The notes: generated from the letters alone by a model not told the origin. A DNA stretch of 62,903 nt, filler included, from Deltaproteobacteria bacterium (GCA_030698575.1; 10 parts of 10 records of this genome joined end to end with filler, not necessarily neighbours in it), one strand, 5' to 3'. Counted from the first letter of the whole stretch, positions 38,947 through 54,445 are shown. Numbers and translations: made by a program.

Positions 38947-39388
38947 AGTCTTCGTATTCGAGATAGGATTCAACGAGCTTCGCCTGATCCGGGGGGAGCG
39001 GCATGAACTTTCCGGTGCCGCGCACGAGCACTTCACCGGTGCTTGTCAGTATTTCGCCCGAGGCCTCGATGATTCGTCGCCGGTCCCGCTCCATGCGGGC
39101 GACGACTTCGACCTTCTCGCCCGCCCGCGTGGGCCGGACGAAGCGGATGGTCAGCTCGGCCGCGTGGCACATGCGCCGGGTGGTGTAGGCCGCCGCCCAG
39201 CCCATCGCCTCGTCGAGAACGGCGGTCAGGATTCCGCCGTGCACGATGTCCTTGAAGCCGCAGAACTCCTCGTTGAACGGCACCTCGCTGCGAATCTCCG
39301 AGCCGTCCACGCGAAAGCGGATGTTCAGGCCGCGGTGGTTTTCGCTGCCGCAGACGATGCACTTCAGGTAGGTCGGCAGGTTTGGCAC
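38921..39388 (-). CDS. PaaI-family thioesterase
   Basis: CIVCGSEN and GFKDIVHGGILTAVLDEAMG motifs. Confidence 0.9.
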   Translation of the reverse strand: MPNLPTYLKCIVCGSENHRGLNIRFRVDGSEIRSEVPFNEEFCGFKDIVHGGILTAVLDEAMGWAAAYTTRRMCHAAELTIRFVRPTRAGEKVEVVARMERDRRRIIEASGEILTSTGEVLVRGTGKFMPLPPDQAKLVESYLEYEDCDRIHFVY

Positions 39389-39428
39389 GAACGATGCCCC
39401 CTCCGGTTTTGGCTCCGTCGACGGCCCG

Positions 39429-42512: not shown

Positions 42513-42746
42513 TTGATCCCCGGCCGTCCGGGAAACCTGGGGCGCGTGGCCGCGGCGGCGCTGTCAGTCGTCACGCTCGGCTTCGCGCTCGCCGTCGGGC
42601 ACTCCGGCGGTGAGCTGGTCTACCGGCACGGCGCCGCAGCGGCCTACGTGCAGGACGCTGCGCCCGGAGCGGCGCGCCTCGAAGGGTACTTCGACGCACG
42701 CCTCAAATCCGGGCGGTCGGATGACGACGACGATGACGACGACTGA
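42513..42746 (+). CDS. DUF2231-like membrane protein C-terminus, 5' truncated
   Basis: TM helix followed by GHSGGELVYRHG. Confidence 0.7.
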   Translation: MIPGRPGNLGRVAAAALSVVTLGFALAVGHSGGELVYRHGAAAAYVQDAAPGAARLEGYFDARLKSGRSDDDDDDDD

Positions 42747-42802
42747 TGCCGGGCGCGGGCGCTTCGACGACCGAGTCCTTACGATTCGATGGAGGAAAGG
42801 CA

Positions 42803-43228
42803 ATGAAAGCATCGCACCTCATGTTGGTTGGTGCCCTCACCTTCGCTGTGCTGGCGAGCACGCCAGCCTTCGCTGAGCCGAGGCGGGATGCCATCCTCGC
42901 CGAGCTCCTGGCGCAGGCCCGGCGGGACGAGCCCGGCTTCGGTCAATTCTCCGCCGAGCGCGGCGCCGCCCTCTACCGAGCGGACCACACGGGCGGCAAG
43001 CCGGGCACGGCTTCCTGCACGGCCTGTCACGGCAATACGCCGCTGGAGACAGGACAGACACGAGCTGGCAAGGCCATCGACCCCATGGCGCTCTCCAAGA
43101 GTCCCGGGCGCTACACCGACAAGGCCAAGGTGGAAAAGTGGTTCACCCGCAATGGCACGCAGGTATTGGGGCGTGCCTGCACGGCCAAGGAGAAGGGCGA
43201 TTTCCTCACTTATGTGACAGCACAGTAG
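42803..43228 (+). CDS. SHP-like monoheme cytochrome c (DUF1924)
   Basis: Signal peptide, FSAERG, SCTACH, R.TD.AKVEKWF.RN and EKGD motifs. Confidence 0.88.
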   Translation: MKASHLMLVGALTFAVLASTPAFAEPRRDAILAELLAQARRDEPGFGQFSAERGAALYRADHTGGKPGTASCTACHGNTPLETGQTRAGKAIDPMALSKSPGRYTDKAKVEKWFTRNGTQVLGRACTAKEKGDFLTYVTAQ

Positions 43229-43259
43229 TGAACCGCCCTTGCAGATAGGAGAGATGGAA

Positions 43260-43754
43260 ATGCCCAAGAGCATCGCGCTGTTGTTGCTGCTATCGACGGT
43301 CGTCACCCCTTCTCCCGCAGCGGGAGACGAGCGGGTGCCGCCGGTCACGGACCCGGTGGTCAACCAGGAATGCGGGAGTTGTCACATGGCGTTCCAGCCG
43401 CAGTTTCTCCCGCAGCGCTCCTGGCAGAAGCTTGTCGACACGTTGGCTGACCACTTTGGTGAAGATGCGAGCCTCGGGGAGACCGAGCGCGCGGCGGTGC
43501 TCGACTATCACCTCAGCAACGCCGCTGACGGCCCGAAGGGTGGTCGTGCGGCCCGGAAGTATGGCCGGAGAATCGCTGTAGGGCAGGCACCGCTCCGAAT
43601 CACCGAGACGCCATGGTGGGTGAAGGAGCACCAGGAAGTGCGGGCCGACAAATGGCGGAGCCGCGAAGTCAAGTCAAAGGCGAACTGCCTCGCGTGTCAC
43701 AAGAGGGCCGAAGAGGGTATCTACGAGGACGAGGAGCACGAGGACGACGACTGA
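43260..43754 (+). CDS. Diheme cytochrome c (DHC)
   Basis: ECGSCHMAFQP, HFGEDAS, RITET and NCLACH motifs. Confidence 0.9.
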   Translation: MPKSIALLLLLSTVVTPSPAAGDERVPPVTDPVVNQECGSCHMAFQPQFLPQRSWQKLVDTLADHFGEDASLGETERAAVLDYHLSNAADGPKGGRAARKYGRRIAVGQAPLRITETPWWVKEHQEVRADKWRSREVKSKANCLACHKRAEEGIYEDEEHEDDD

Positions 43755-44299: not shown

Positions 44300-44851
44300 C
44301 TAGTTTTCTTTTCCAAAACGCGCGAGTCGGTCGAGCAGGCGCTCGGGCGAATCGTCGACCAGAACCATTGCGCGGTTCTTTTCCTTGAGGAACTCCTCGG
44401 CAACGGCCTGGTCGAGAAACTCGATGAGGCGGTCGTAGTAGCCCTCGACATTCAGGATTCCGCAGGGCTTGTCGTGCAGCCCGAGGGTCGCCCAGCTCCA
44501 GATCTCGAAGAACTCCTCCCAGGTCCCCACGCCGCCGGGCAGCACGATGAAGGCGTCGGCCAGCTCCGCCATCATCCCCTTCCGCGCGGGCATCGAGGAG
44601 ACGGTGCGGAGATCCCGGACCCGCGGATGGCCGAGCCCCTGCTCGGCGAGGATCTCCGGGATAATCCCTATGACTTCTCCGCCGCCGTCGAGCACGGCAT
44701 CGGCGACCTCGCCCATCAGCCCCGCCCGCATGCCGCCGTAGACGAGGCCGATTCCCTTTCCGGCGAGCAGTTCACCGAGGCGCCTCGCCATCGCGCTGTA
44801 GGCGGGGCGCGCCCCTTCCCGGGAACCGCAGTAAACGCATACGCGCTTCAT
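44300..44851 (-). CDS. LOG family nucleotide phosphoribohydrolase
   Basis: VCVYCGS, LVYGG..GLMG and LPGGVGTWEE motifs. Confidence 0.92.
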   Translation of the reverse strand: MKRVCVYCGSREGARPAYSAMARRLGELLAGKGIGLVYGGMRAGLMGEVADAVLDGGGEVIGIIPEILAEQGLGHPRVRDLRTVSSMPARKGMMAELADAFIVLPGGVGTWEEFFEIWSWATLGLHDKPCGILNVEGYYDRLIEFLDQAVAEEFLKEKNRAMVLVDDSPERLLDRLARFGKEN

Positions 44852-44878: not shown

Positions 44879-45751
44879 TCAGGTTCTCGGGCGGCTCACC
44901 TTGATCGATTCGTAGAGCGCCGCGCCGAGGATGATCGCACCGCCGCCCAGCGTGCGGAGTGAGGGGTACTCCCCGAGCAGCAACGCCGCAAGGGCGATGC
45001 CGTAGGCCGGCTGAAGGCTCTGCACGATGCCGAGGGTCTTCGCCTTCAGGTGGCGCAGGCTGTCAAGCAGCAACGAATGCGGGAAGGCGGTGAACAGCAG
45101 TCCGAGAGCGACGAGCTGGAGCGCCCACGGCGCCGCCTGCCCGCCAAAGCCCCTCGGCATGACAGGCAGGAGCAGCAGCGCAGCCACCGTGACCTGAAAG
45201 AAAAGCGTCACGGCGCTGTCAGACCCGCTCAGGTACTTCTTCTGAAAGATATTGCGAAGCGAGTAGAGCAGGGCGGAGCAGACGCCAAGGGCCACCCCGT
45301 GTGTTGCGCTGCTCTCGAGAGAGAGCCCCGGCACCATCAGGAGAACTCCCGCCAGCACCGCCAGCGCGGTCACGACGTCGGCCGGATCAATACGCGCGCG
45401 GTTGAAGGCGGGCTCGAGCAGGACCGTGATCACGGGGAAGGTGAAGAGCGAGACGATCCCGATGGCCACGTTCGAGATCTGCACGGCGTGGAAATAAAGA
45501 ATCCAGTGGGCGCCGAGCAGCGCTCCGAGGAGCACGACCATCAGGTAGGCGCGCCGGTTCTCGAGTCGGAACGAGCGGCGGCGGGCGAGCAGCATCACGA
45601 CGAGGGCGAGGGCCGCCACCGCCGATCGCCAGAAGATGATCTGTTGGGGGGGCAGGTTGACGAGCTTCGGAAACAGCGCGGTGAACCCCAGAAGGAGCGT
45701 CGCCCCGTTGATCTCCAGGAGCCCTTTCGCGGCGCGCTGCATGCCCGGCAA
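44879..45751 (-). CDS. EamA/DMT family transporter
   Basis: About 10 hydrophobic helices in two repeats; TTG 45751 or ATG 45742 start. Confidence 0.88.
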   Translation of the reverse strand: MPGMQRAAKGLLEINGATLLLGFTALFPKLVNLPPQQIIFWRSAVAALALVVMLLARRRSFRLENRRAYLMVVLLGALLGAHWILYFHAVQISNVAIGIVSLFTFPVITVLLEPAFNRARIDPADVVTALAVLAGVLLMVPGLSLESSATHGVALGVCSALLYSLRNIFQKKYLSGSDSAVTLFFQVTVAALLLLPVMPRGFGGQAAPWALQLVALGLLFTAFPHSLLLDSLRHLKAKTLGIVQSLQPAYGIALAALLLGEYPSLRTLGGGAIILGAALYESIKVSRPRT

Positions 45752-45947
45752 TTCCCCTTCCTGCCCCGCCCGGCCGCCCTCGGAGGACGTTAGCGGGAAC
45801 CTGACAGCCTGAAAATACCGCCCCCGCCGAAACCTTCCTCCGTTTCGCGGTCCGGAAGCCGAGGAGGGGGCCCGACTTCCACACCGTGTGTTGCATCCCC
45901 CCTAACATTTCCCGGAACGGGGATTTCGGACGGTCTTCGCGGGCCTC

Positions 45948-45975
45948 AAAAAAACAGTACTAAATCAGATACTTA
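45948..45975 (+). promoter_or_regulatory. IHF binding site
   Basis: AATCAG-ATAC-TTA (45963-45975) matches WATCAR-N4-TTR, with an A7 tract at 45948-45954. Confidence 0.7.
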
Positions 45976-46013
45976 GAGCTTTTTACGCGTTCTTTCACGC
46001 CATCCCGGCGCAC

Positions 46014-46029
46014 TGGCACGCCCCTTGCT
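46014..46029 (+). promoter_or_regulatory. Sigma54 (RpoN) -24/-12 promoter
   Basis: TGGCACG-CCCC-TTGCT, an exact consensus match; predicted TSS about 46040. Confidence 0.85.
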
Positions 46030-46039
46030 TTATCCATCG

Positions 46040-46456
46040 GTGTGGAGCGCTTGGACCCGCCGGCCCTGCCGGGCCCCGGCGTACGGGACACCGGATCCCG
46101 TCAAGTCGCGAGGCGGGCGCCCGCACAGACCTCGATAATGCCTCCGGTGGGAACGTCGGAGTGAGGCAGAGGCGAGGTCGGGCGTTCAGGGGGCGTGCAA
46201 AACGCGGTGAGCATGCCCTCCGGGTCCTGCCTCTTCGAACGAATTGATGAAACCCTGTGTTTGCAAAGGTCAAATCGGCGCCGAGGAGCGGCACCGGAAA
46301 ATTTGCCGACGGCCCAACCCCCCCCCCAAAGACCCCTCGGGTCCGACGGCACTGCCGGTTCTCTCGATAGAGAGATACCGGAATCGAGAGCCAGAGGAAC
46401 GGCGGCCTCTGACCTCGAAGGCAAGCGGGGCTCTCACGAGCCCCGCTTGTATTTTA
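46040..46456 (+). ncRNA. Candidate sigma54-dependent structured ncRNA (about 415 nt) or attenuated leader
   Basis: Bounded by the sigma54 promoter and a terminator; many helices; no credible ORF inside. Confidence 0.55.
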
Positions 46457-46457
46457 T
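46422..46457 (+). terminator. Intrinsic terminator
   Basis: CAAGCGGGGCTC-TCAC-GAGCCCCGCTTG perfect 12-bp stem followed by TATTTTAT. Confidence 0.85.
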
Positions 46458-46468
46458 ACTAAGTAACC

Positions 46469-47689
46469 ATGCAGAGGACCGCCGTGCTCGAACGCCAGAA
46501 CCACCTCGACATCTTTGTCGCGATCTCGATCGCGCTGCACGCGCTGCTCTTCTGGGCGTACCTCTCGCCGTTCCTGTCTTCGCTGGAGCTGCCGTCAATC
46601 CGTCCGACCATCGAAATCGTCGAAGTGCCCCGCTCCTACCGGCGCCCCACGCCGGCCACGCCCGCTCCTCCGCCCCCTGCTCCCGACGAAGCGCCGCCCG
46701 CGCCCGAAACTGAAGCGCAACCCGCGCCACAGCCCGTCCCGGAGCCTCCGTCGCGCGCCTTCGACGTCGTGGACACCCCCAAACCCGCGGTCGAGGAGAT
46801 CCCGCGCGATGCGCGCGTTCTCTCCAGGTACAACCAGCGTGTCGAGCGCCAGGCGCGCGCGCGTGATCTCCCCATCGACAACCGGGGCGAGATCAGCAAG
46901 CGCAAGACCGCGGATCCCCTCGCCAAGCCGTCGGCCGTCGAGAGCGAGCAGCGCGCAGCCGAAGCACGCGAGGCGAAGCAGGCCGATGCGGCGCAGGCGC
47001 GTGCAGTCGCCGGCGGCGGCGATGGCGGGGCGGCCGCCAGGAAGGCTCTCCGGCCGGGGACGCCGGCGCCGGCTGAGCCGCCCGAGCGCGTGAGCGCCGA
47101 TGCGATCTTCAGGAGGAAGGGCGCTGGAGAAGAGGGCGGCGCGAAGGGCGGCAAGGCCAGTCCCGGGGAGGGCATCAAGGATCTGCTTCCCACCGAAGAG
47201 CGCCTCGCGCAGCTCGCGGCCGACGCCAAGGGCGGACGAAGCAATCCCTACAATCCGGATCTTGTGCCAGTGGACGCGGAGATGTCCATGGCCACGCTCG
47301 AGAGCGAGCACGTCGGTTACTATCTGGCCATCAAGAAACGCATCGTGATCAACTGGGATCCCGCGCGGCTCGTGCGCTCGGCCAGCGACACCTACCAGCA
47401 GACGCTGCAGAACTTCGGCGGCGGGAGCATGCTCTCGCACAGCGCGGGCAGCTCGTTGGCGGAAGCCGCGGCGCGGACCGGCCGGGGCGCCACGGTGGTC
47501 CGGTTCGTGATTGCCAAGAACGGCCGCCTCGAGGGCGAGCCAGCACTCCTGCAGTCGTCGGGCAGCGCCTTTCTCGACGAGGAAGCGCTCCGCGCCGTGC
47601 GTTACGCCGAACCCTTCCCACCCGTCCCCGACCGTATCGCCAAGAACAGTCTGACGATCACGGGCGAATTCATCTACGGCCGCCGCTAA
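46469..47689 (+). CDS. TonB/TolA-family energy transducer-like protein
   Basis: SIALH TM anchor, Pro-rich linker, C-terminal QSSGSAFLDEEALRAVRYAEPFPPVP. Confidence 0.85.
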   Translation: MQRTAVLERQNHLDIFVAISIALHALLFWAYLSPFLSSLELPSIRPTIEIVEVPRSYRRPTPATPAPPPPAPDEAPPAPETEAQPAPQPVPEPPSRAFDVVDTPKPAVEEIPRDARVLSRYNQRVERQARARDLPIDNRGEISKRKTADPLAKPSAVESEQRAAEAREAKQADAAQARAVAGGGDGGAAARKALRPGTPAPAEPPERVSADAIFRRKGAGEEGGAKGGKASPGEGIKDLLPTEERLAQLAADAKGGRSNPYNPDLVPVDAEMSMATLESEHVGYYLAIKKRIVINWDPARLVRSASDTYQQTLQNFGGGSMLSHSAGSSLAEAAARTGRGATVVRFVIAKNGRLEGEPALLQSSGSAFLDEEALRAVRYAEPFPPVPDRIAKNSLTITGEFIYGRR

Positions 47690-53461: not shown

Positions 53462-54445
53462 GTGAATCGGAACACACCAAACACCAGGCAAGCCATGGAC
53501 GACAGGACCGCACGACCCCAAGCCCCAGCGATCCCGGCCTCCGCATCAAGGCGCCTCCTGGCCGCCTTCCTGGCCGGCCGGAACCCGCGCACCCTGGCTG
53601 CCTACCGCGCTGACGTTCAGCACTTCGCCGCGTTCCTGGGCGCCGCTACGGTGGAGGACGCGGCCCGTGCGCTACTTGCCGGGGGACAGGGCCGCGCGAA
53701 CGAAACGGCGCTCCGCTACCGCGCGCACCTGCAAGAGCGGGGGCTTTCCCCGGCCACAGTCAACCGGCGCCTCGCGGCCGTGCGCTCACTGGTGAAGGTC
53801 GCCCGCGTGATCGGGCTGGTCCCCTGGAAGCTCGACGTGGAACCTCTCAAGGCCGAGCCCTACCGCGACACCCGAGGACCCGGGCGCGAGGGCTTCCGGC
53901 GGATGCTGATGCTTCTCGAAGGGCGCGACGACGCCCGGGCGCGCCGGGCGCGGGCACTCCTGAGCCTGGGCTACGACCTGGCGCTCCGGCGCGGAGAGGT
54001 GGGAGCGCTTAACGTGGCGGACGTGGACCTGGAGGCCGGAACCGTTGCCGTGCTGGGCAAGGGACGCGCCACCAAGCAGCGCATGACGCTTCCCGAGCCC
54101 ACGCGCGCCACGCTGGCGGACTGGCTGGAGGCGCGAGGCGCCGAGCCCGGCCCCCTGTTCCTGAATTTCGACCGGGCGGGGAAGGGAGGGCGCCTGACGC
54201 CCGCCAGCATTAACCGCATTGTGCACGCCCTCGGGCGTGCCGCCGGGCTCCGCGTCACTTACCACGGGCTCCGGCACGCGAGCATCACGCGCGCCCTCGA
54301 CCTCTCCGGGGGGAACGTCCGCGCCGTGCAGCGCCACTCCCGCCATCAGGACGTGCGGACCGTCGGGCGCTATGATGACGAGCGCCGGGACCTGGCCGGA
54401 GAGATCGCTCGGAAGGTCGCTGAGGATGCCCGGGAAGATATGTGA
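53462..54445 (+). CDS. Tyrosine recombinase (XerC/D-like resolvase)
   Basis: SPATVNRRLAAVRS, LRRGE, GKG, HGLRH, RHQ and RYD, a complete R-K-H-R-H-Y set; GTG 53462 or ATG 53495 start. Confidence 0.93.
   Translation: MNRNTPNTRQAMDDRTARPQAPAIPASASRRLLAAFLAGRNPRTLAAYRADVQHFAAFLGAATVEDAARALLAGGQGRANETALRYRAHLQERGLSPATVNRRLAAVRSLVKVARVIGLVPWKLDVEPLKAEPYRDTRGPGREGFRRMLMLLEGRDDARARRARALLSLGYDLALRRGEVGALNVADVDLEAGTVAVLGKGRATKQRMTLPEPTRATLADWLEARGAEPGPLFLNFDRAGKGGRLTPASINRIVHALGRAAGLRVTYHGLRHASITRALDLSGGNVRAVQRHSRHQDVRTVGRYDDERRDLAGEIARKVAEDAREDM

Follow-up and report, generated by a model that had tools for sequence, protein, structure and literature searches.

A candidate sigma-54-dependent gene for a structured RNA upstream of a TonB/TolA-like gene in a small uncultured bacterial lineage

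The DNA analysed here, referred to as the window, is a stretch of 62,903 nucleotides from Deltaproteobacteria bacterium (GCA_030698575.1), a metagenome-assembled genome (MAG) of 653 contigs that is 91.6% complete and has a G+C content of 65%. The window comprises about 10 of these contigs with N spacers as joints (18 N-runs of 44 at window 7237-59941, forming 9 pairs with 12 non-N bases inside each pair), so adjacency across the spacers carries no meaning. The locus in question lies on an 8-kb contig (window 42511-50500; G000:C80), where it fills a 717-bp gap between a gene for an EamA-family transporter and a TonB_C gene, with convergent gcvPB/gcvPA beyond the latter. Within the gap, a candidate enhancer or upstream activating sequence (UAS), a site resembling that of integration host factor (IHF), a sigma-54 (RpoN) promoter, the helices of a predicted RNA and an intrinsic terminator follow one another on the plus strand (Table 1).

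Table 1. Predicted features of the candidate RNA locus and its flanking genes, in window coordinates
Feature	Coordinates	Strand	Remarks
EamA-family transporter gene, divergent	44879-45751	-	Upstream neighbour in the window
Candidate enhancer (UAS), CACAC-C-GTGTG overlapping TGTT-N11-AACA	45880-45907	+	About 107-134 bp 5' of the -24 element
CACAC-C-GTGTG	45880-45890	+	Sequence reading
TGTT-N11-AACA	45889-45907	+	Sequence reading
A7 tract	45948-45954	+	Between UAS and promoter
IHF-like site AATCAGATACTTA	45963-45975	+	Between UAS and promoter
Predicted sigma-54 (RpoN) -24/-12 promoter, TGGCACG-N4-TTGCT, TGGCACGCCCCTTGCT	46014-46029	+	Exact match
Helices of predicted RNA: closing helix, AAAACGCGG hairpin, H1-H3			
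5' domain of predicted RNA	46039-46240	+	Closing helix 46051-46059/46221-46229 around three sub-helices
5' hairpin, conserved loop AAAACGCGGUGA	46189-46220	+	One of the three sub-helices; in minimum free energy (MFE) and consensus folds
Variable linker	46241-46304	+	Poorly alignable; length differs among the four sequences compared
H1, G+C-rich stem, C-run loop (C10 at 46318-46327)	46305-46350	+	12 pairs, 3 changed on both sides
H2, CCGG...CCGG outer stem, pyrimidine/purine inner stem, variable loop	46355-46381	+	Arms differ, stay complementary
H3, invariant 8-nt loop AACGGCGG (46398-46405)	46385-46417	+	11 pairs
Intrinsic terminator, 13-bp stem, 4-nt loop, U-rich tail ATTTTATACT	46421-46457	+	Stem 46421-46450; 9/13 pairs G-C
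TonB/TolA-like gene, 406 amino acids, N-terminal membrane anchor, C-terminal TonB_C/TonB_2	46469-47689	+	Pfam TonB_C 1.3e-08, TonB_2 2.7e-07

The gap would best be explained as the gene for a structured non-coding RNA of about 417 nt (approximately 46040-46456, plus strand) that is dependent on an activator and on RpoN, stands alone and belongs to a new family, a reading to which we give an even chance. The conserved promoter architecture, the absence of a coding signal, the conserved helices, the single copy in the genome and the restriction to one small lineage are shown directly; that the locus is transcribed, where the RNA begins and ends, how it acts and that it is separate from the downstream gene are inferred. 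The comparisons draw on four sequences from one family-level clade, namely the window, the related genomes G001 and G002 and one metagenome contig. A sequence-only reading of the same DNA had described the interval as a complete sigma-54 transcription unit that contains no protein; the observation held up as a whole, each motif that it listed was recovered where it had been placed, and its interpretation of the product as an activator-controlled large RNA is supported.

Of 61 genomes searched at the DNA level, three contain the region, these being the host and its two family relatives, one of which is labelled a Thermodesulfobacteriota MAG in its record. The phylum to which they are assigned in GTDB holds three species genomes in total, all three of which carry the region, and among 185,579 species genomes a pattern scan yielded no relatives beyond these two. 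The fourth copy was recovered on one contig by a metagenome scan. A covariance model of the 3' domain of the RNA found a single copy in the host genome and, over 151 genomes, the three family members, with nothing credible in the 148 others. Seven weak matches to this model (22-27 bits) were rejected as plain terminator hairpins that have no upstream sigma-54 site and no AACGGCGG. As far as found, the predicted unit is restricted to one small uncultured lineage, and this narrow distribution limits the significance of the RNA.

TGGCAC-N5-TTGC at 46014-46028 is the sole zero-mismatch match to the sigma-54 pattern in the window. When up to one mismatch is allowed, four matches are obtained against 2.99 expected, so the exact site alone stands out. 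The string CTGGCACG-N4-CTTGCT is unchanged in all four loci, the flanking sequence having diverged, and the layout, which reads as that of a sigma-54-dependent promoter, is conserved across the loci. Transcription from such promoters usually starts about 12 nt after the GC of the -12 element, and on this spacing the start is predicted near 46040. Further upstream, the inverted repeats and the A7 tract with its IHF-like site (together 45948-45975) were read in place as the sequence-only reading had given them, and AATCAGATACTTA fits the IHF consensus WATCARNNNNTTR. An IHF-like site is present in three of the four loci (the window, G002 with one mismatch, and the metagenome contig), with none evident in G001, and the upstream TGT...CCTAACAYTTCC block is present in the same three and partial (GTAACA) in G001.

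The host genome encodes rpoN (one Sigma54_DBD match, 212 bits) and yields 24 Sigma54_activat matches above the cut-off. A genome-wide script returned 24 strict TGGCAC-N5-TTGC sites, where by our own estimate roughly 8 would be expected from length alone, and 48 relaxed sigma-54-like sites. This locus is the only one of the 48 with the TGT...CTAACA motif upstream, an exclusiveness which suggests that a dedicated activator may serve this promoter. No activator gene was found in either of the two stretches examined, the 8-kb contig and 10.3 kb of the G001 contig. Elsewhere in the window, two other sigma-54-like sites with one mismatch each lie on other contigs, at 54057-54071 on the minus strand (TGGCGCGTCCCTTGC) and at 39383-39397 on the plus strand (TGGCACGAACGATGC).

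No conserved open reading frame (ORF) was found in the RNA region, where no frame is open across the four homologues. Substitutions fall evenly over the codon positions in six of six pairs (for example, 53/56/59 between the window and G001), with no excess at the third position, and indels of 1, 2, 7, 10, 22 and 115 nt disrupt every frame, which bears out the claim that the interval holds no protein. The adjacent downstream gene, by comparison, has substitutions of 99/94/203 by codon position and indels that are nearly all multiples of three. It is therefore extremely improbable that the region encodes a small protein or that a short internal ORF is its functional product. The high G+C content does leave frames open, of 152 codons on the minus strand and of 40-118 codons on the plus strand, and weak tblastn matches arise in several frames on both strands, the strongest with E = 3e-15 to 3e-11 at 46165-46518 (+) and 45998-46458 (-), from searches made with no composition correction against a tiny database. 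The 152-codon minus-strand frame (tblastn E about 1e-11 to 1e-15) was considered as a conserved ORF and rejected because it has a stop in all three homologues and lacks codon periodicity; it also opposes the orientation of the promoter and terminator.

The 5' domain of the predicted RNA was folded as a consensus of three sequences, giving 54 pairs, 12 of which have changed on both sides with pairing kept, and 86.3% of cells are paired against 26-46% when the partners are slid. The closing helix UUGGACCCG/CGGGUCC is conserved, as are the first ~35 nt of the RNA, and the loop of the 5' hairpin has the consensus AAAACG(G)CGGNGA. The arms of a hairpin at 46081-46101 differ in sequence among the loci with the form kept, and in a related environmental contig the changes 46148 T>C and 46156 T>C convert adjacent G-U pairs to G-C in the hairpin 46142-46161. 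G002 is without 115 nt of the 5' domain, and the lengths of the predicted RNA among the four loci are 418, 294, 435 and 420 nt. The conservation profile is highest at the terminator and 3' hairpins and lowest in the 5' domain, which is the pattern of a trans-acting small RNA (sRNA) and not of a riboswitch leader.

The pairings that had been proposed from sequence alone fared unequally, although the promoter and helices in general are conserved in the relatives. The hairpins at 46189-46220, 46355-46381 and 46392-46411 recur in the MFE fold and in the consensus folds. A hairpin at 46331-43 is seen in the window and G002 only, inside the loop of a larger conserved hairpin. Two longer-range pairings, of 46143-49 with 46292-98 and of 46163-69 with 46227-33, join strings that are indeed complementary but appear in neither the MFE fold nor the consensus, in which 46221-46233 pairs with the 5' end of the RNA at 46044-46059.

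The 3' domain was compared in all four sequences and has 44 pairs, 6 of them changed on both sides; 92.0% of cells are paired, against 35-48% with partners slid, and its covariation score was reached by none of 500 shuffles. Pairs in H2 are undercounted in this model because MAFFT and the model misregister part of the hairpin. Its inner stems in the four sequences are UCUCUC/GAGAGA, UCCCC/GGGGA, UUUUCUUCC/GGAGGGAGA and CUCCCUC/GAGGGAG, and the outer CCGG/CCGG becomes CCGA/UCGG in the metagenome contig. In H3, 5 pairs are invariant, 3 have changed on one side and 2 on both, and 95.5% of cells are paired, while the loop AACGGCGG is identical in all four sequences with an unpaired probability of 0.92-1.0. 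The H1 loop carries a run of C5-C10 in every sequence (C8 in G002), with a mean unpaired probability of 0.96 in the window, 1.0 in the metagenome contig, 0.5 in G002 and 0.28 in G001. The conserved elements that lie exposed are this C-run loop and two loops related to each other, AAAACG(G)CGG and GAACGGCGG; the unpaired probabilities of these elements are mostly 0.6-1.0. Across the four RNAs, AACG is found 14 times and AACGG 9 times, where 6.3 and 2.1 occurrences are expected, an enrichment that is suggestive at most, since homologous sequences do not count as independent observations.

Near-identical environmental contigs differ in the length of the C10 run, those of runs X3 and X6 having a C>A change and two bases omitted at 46318-46320. 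A pairing of the H3 loop with CCGCCGU in codons 4-6 of the downstream gene is available in the window, weaker in G002 and lacking in G001 and the metagenome contig, and was rejected as chance, given the 65% G+C of the genome. A possible pseudoknot of the H3 loop with CCGNCG at 46057-46062 is perfect in one sequence, formed with wobble pairs in two and mismatched in one.

The terminator that had been read as a 12-bp hairpin at 46422-46457 was confirmed as such, with the stem measuring 13 bp (46421-46450) and the tail being U-rich. A scan of 2.5 kb returned this one site; since shuffles average 1.7 such sites, the number by itself does not exceed chance, and it is the conservation of the hairpin that counts. 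Hairpin energies are -26.0 to -27.4 kcal/mol across the four sequences, and 12 of the 13 stem pairs are invariant in all of them, with a variable loop and a closing pair that is G-U in three sequences and A-U in the metagenome contig. On the minus strand the hairpin is not followed by a T run. The palindrome is unique in the host genome, and an invariant, genome-unique stem points to putative recognition of its sequence, whether in the RNA or, as an operator, in the DNA.

Recognition as DNA is the core of an alternative in which control is exerted at the DNA level only, the enhancer, IHF site and promoter acting together with the 13-bp palindrome as an operator for the downstream gene, and the RNA helices having no function. 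As would be expected of an operator, the palindrome is invariant in all four loci while its 4-nt centre varies, and it occurs nowhere else in the genome. Pairing is, however, kept through changes on both sides at places away from the palindrome (6 pairs in the 3' domain and 12 in the 5' domain), hairpin arms such as those of H2 and 46081-46101 differ in sequence but not in form, and the placement of a sigma-54 promoter 430 nt from the start codon, with a strong terminator intervening, needs an explanation at the RNA level. Folding energy bears on this alternative as well. The plus strand folds at -201.4 kcal/mol (z = -3.28), which none of 100 shuffles equalled, and the minus strand folds equally well (z = -3.62), so folding energy neither proves function nor picks the strand. 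G-U cells number 26 against 8 A-C cells on the plus strand, an excess by which the plus strand is favoured, as it is by the two G-U to G-C changes in the environmental contig. Control at the DNA level only is, on these grounds, very unlikely.

The equal folding of the two strands also weighs against a stand-alone RNA, as do several further points. The comparative evidence comes from just four sequences of a single family-level clade, and the covariation figures are soft because the consensus structures were derived from the same sequences used for the pair counts; they are supportive, not conclusive. The U-tails are interrupted (AUUUUA, GCUUUC, ACUUUA), so termination may be leaky. In every locus the start of the TonB/TolA-like gene is close behind the hairpin, the distance ranging from 18 nt (the window) to ~45 nt, and a scan of 45000-47500 for sigma-70-type promoters returned no sites. 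Genes for Hfq and CsrA were not found in the host genome, whose completeness of 91.6% leaves the absence of Hfq unproven, and with neither found no chaperone or partner can be named. The expression data consist of assembled Logan contigs of public runs, from which no ends, strand or level can be read. RNA library X4, the one such library with near-identical sequence, contains two contigs at a depth of ~2.5-3.3, one covering 45761-45914, which lies 5' of the promoter, and the other covering 46346-46533, which crosses the terminator into the next gene, with 46040-46345 uncovered; this fits DNA carry-over or read-through and not an abundant discrete RNA, but is not taken to settle the matter. Small word shares were seen in sediment, estuary and aquatic runs and are not used to name a habitat.

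Several of these points would favour the main rival, a cis-acting leader or attenuator. In this reading the TonB/TolA-like gene is expressed from the sigma-54 promoter, with the 417 nt as the untranslated 5' leader of its transcript. Most transcripts would be halted at the terminator unless a protein, a ligand or a modification of RNA polymerase permits read-through, and the short RNA would be a by-product or have a second role. Such a leader is possible, if somewhat unlikely. The short gap between hairpin and start codon, the lack of a detected sigma-70-type promoter, the interrupted U-tails and the library contig that crosses the terminator all speak for it, as does the start codon in the window, which has no evident Shine-Dalgarno sequence. 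A TonB_C orthologue lies directly 3' of the RNA in all four loci while the upstream neighbour changes (EamA in two, transketolase in two). Downstream synteny with gcvPB is likewise conserved, however, so this linkage may simply reflect close kinship, and the library contigs are of low depth, with one over untranscribed DNA, which suggests DNA carry-over.

An attenuator would also be expected to leave traces in the RNA. No conserved anti-terminator pairing was found in the four sequences: with the 3' arm withheld, the 5' arm of the terminator pairs with different, non-homologous segments in each, and the terminator form is favoured over the alternative pairing by 15.8-24.9 kcal/mol. Conservation is lowest in the 5' domain, which would be the sensor and most of which G002 lacks, and highest in the terminator; in known riboswitches this order is reversed. 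The region has no match to a riboswitch or leader family. A -10-like hexamer lies just after the terminator in all four loci (TATACT, TATACT, TATAAT and TCTAAT; 46455-46460 in the window) and could give the gene a start of its own. The stand-alone and leader readings are not mutually exclusive. The claim of a complete unit in the sequence-only reading, by which the RNA would stop at the terminator and be separate from the gene that follows, is likewise an inference.

The -10-like hexamer, for which no -35 element is evident, stands 8-9 nt upstream of the ATG in both the window and G002, a placement from which a leaderless messenger RNA (mRNA) would result. An in-frame TAA at 46460 excludes an earlier start of the TonB/TolA-like gene. 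In G001 (L026, G001:C25, 4984-7123, minus strand), the TonB/TolA-like gene encodes 417 amino acids and is followed by an overlapping second TonB_C gene of 298 amino acids; the window is without a second TonB_C gene before gcvPB.

If the RNA is indeed a stand-alone regulator, the features of the locus could be assembled into the following model. A dedicated enhancer-binding protein would bind the inverted repeat near 45880-45907, and bending of the IHF type would bring it to the RpoN-holoenzyme at 46014-46029. ATP-dependent opening would then allow transcription to start near 46040, and most transcripts would end at the strong conserved intrinsic terminator. The action of the RNA would presumably depend on conserved loops that stay single-stranded. 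The C-run in H1 would pair with G-rich targets, and the related AACG(G)CGG loops in H3 and the 5' hairpin would bind either target RNAs (for example, those containing CCGCCG) or an RNA-binding protein. As protein sites, these loops may be likened to the A-rich motifs that CrcZ offers to Hfq (PMC4063720; PMC5113210).

A comparison with Rfam 15 (4227 models) supports the claim that the RNA belongs to no recognised family. Only two transfer RNAs pass the threshold in the window, both outside this locus. At E<=10, the region 45700-46600 gives four sub-threshold matches (bits/cut-off 20.5/70, 19.6/37, 17.3/44 and 16.7/50), the best of which spans the terminator hairpin only, and the three homologous loci (L002, L003 and L008) give no matches at E<=1. 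The exclusion of RNase P and transfer-messenger RNA (tmRNA) made in the sequence-only reading also stands, as RNase P RNA is located on contig C559 (242 bits) and tmRNA on C498, with none on C80. Two 6S RNA matches lie above the Rfam threshold, with 64 and 62 bits (G000:C338:6688-6869 and G000:C171:11475-11656). The identity of a housekeeping RNA was rejected for the present locus, since RNase P, 6S and tmRNA are all located elsewhere in the genome.

Regulatory RNAs under the control of an activator and RpoN are already known and include Qrr, GlmY, CrcZ and Pxr. Qrr, GlmY and the Pxr of Myxococcus are about 100-200 nt long, whereas the RNA predicted here is ~417 nt, has a multi-branched 5' domain and has no Rfam match to any of them. 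To our knowledge, only a small number of structured examples exceed 400 nt, and for this lineage, with its three species genomes in GTDB, no such RNA has been described. Riboswitches and attenuators resemble the locus in having a structured RNA with a terminator a few nt before the start codon and a conserved linkage to the downstream gene; they differ in that no conserved anti-terminator and no conserved core resembling a ligand pocket are found here, and in that G002 dispenses with the 5' domain. Leaders of this sort seldom have a sigma-54 promoter. RNAs of the CsrB/RsmZ type, which sequester CsrA by way of many A(N)GGA motifs in loops, differ from those of the window and G002, in which the motif is absent (A.GGA, 0 in both), and the host has no CsrA match.

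A close likeness is to CrcZ of Pseudomonas, a CbrB- and RpoN-dependent, protein-sequestering RNA of 407 nt with A-rich motifs that bind Hfq (PMC4063720; PMC5113210). CrcZ/CrcY and the present locus have in common an RpoN promoter with a dedicated, here putative, activator, a length of ~400 nt, repeated exposed motifs, an intrinsic terminator and no ORF. The RNA predicted here has no A-rich motif (AAnAAnAA is absent from all four sequences, and three consecutive ARN triplets, missing from the window, occur at no conserved position in the other sequences) and no Rfam match to CrcZ, the host has no Hfq that was found, and no activator gene is adjacent on the stretches examined. Its repeated motif is instead AACG(G)CGG, in two well-exposed copies only. 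The sigma-54 regulome of Desulfovibrio vulgaris includes four non-coding RNAs (PMC4641369) and offers a likeness in the combination of an enhancer and a -24/-12 promoter without an ORF and in an anaerobe-type free-living genome rich in enhancer-binding proteins. Full-text searches of the literature found no RNA of this type upstream of tonB-like genes, which is weak evidence of absence. As sigma-54-dependent non-coding RNAs are already established, the predicted RNA would be a new family of a known kind, set apart by its size, by the branching of its 5' domain and by being confined to a very small lineage without cultured members.

A bolder reading, speculative and quite unlikely, is that the locus encodes a lineage-specific decoy RNA of the size of CrcZ, in a candidate phylum apparently without Hfq and CsrA, and that a dedicated enhancer-binding protein has this as its only target. 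Such a decoy might titrate an RNA-binding protein or mRNAs that are G-rich or contain CCGCCG, and would do so, on the same slender odds, through its exposed AACG(G)CGG loops, the C-run loop and the sequence-invariant terminator hairpin. It would then represent a new RNA-protein regulatory axis and not just another base-pairing sRNA. Even as a stand-alone RNA of unspecified action, the element, if real, would provide a handle on signal-dependent post-transcriptional control in an organism in which neither Hfq nor CsrA was found, and Rfam would gain a family. All parts of the unit, from the enhancer and IHF site through the promoter and RNA to the terminator, lie within ~580 bp, and a unit so compact is directly testable in a heterologous host.

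Elsewhere on the same contig, genes for a DUF1924 protein and a dihaem cytochrome c (DHC) form an adjacent, co-oriented pair at window 42746-43754, and a LOG-family (lysine-decarboxylase-like) gene lies at 44300-44851.

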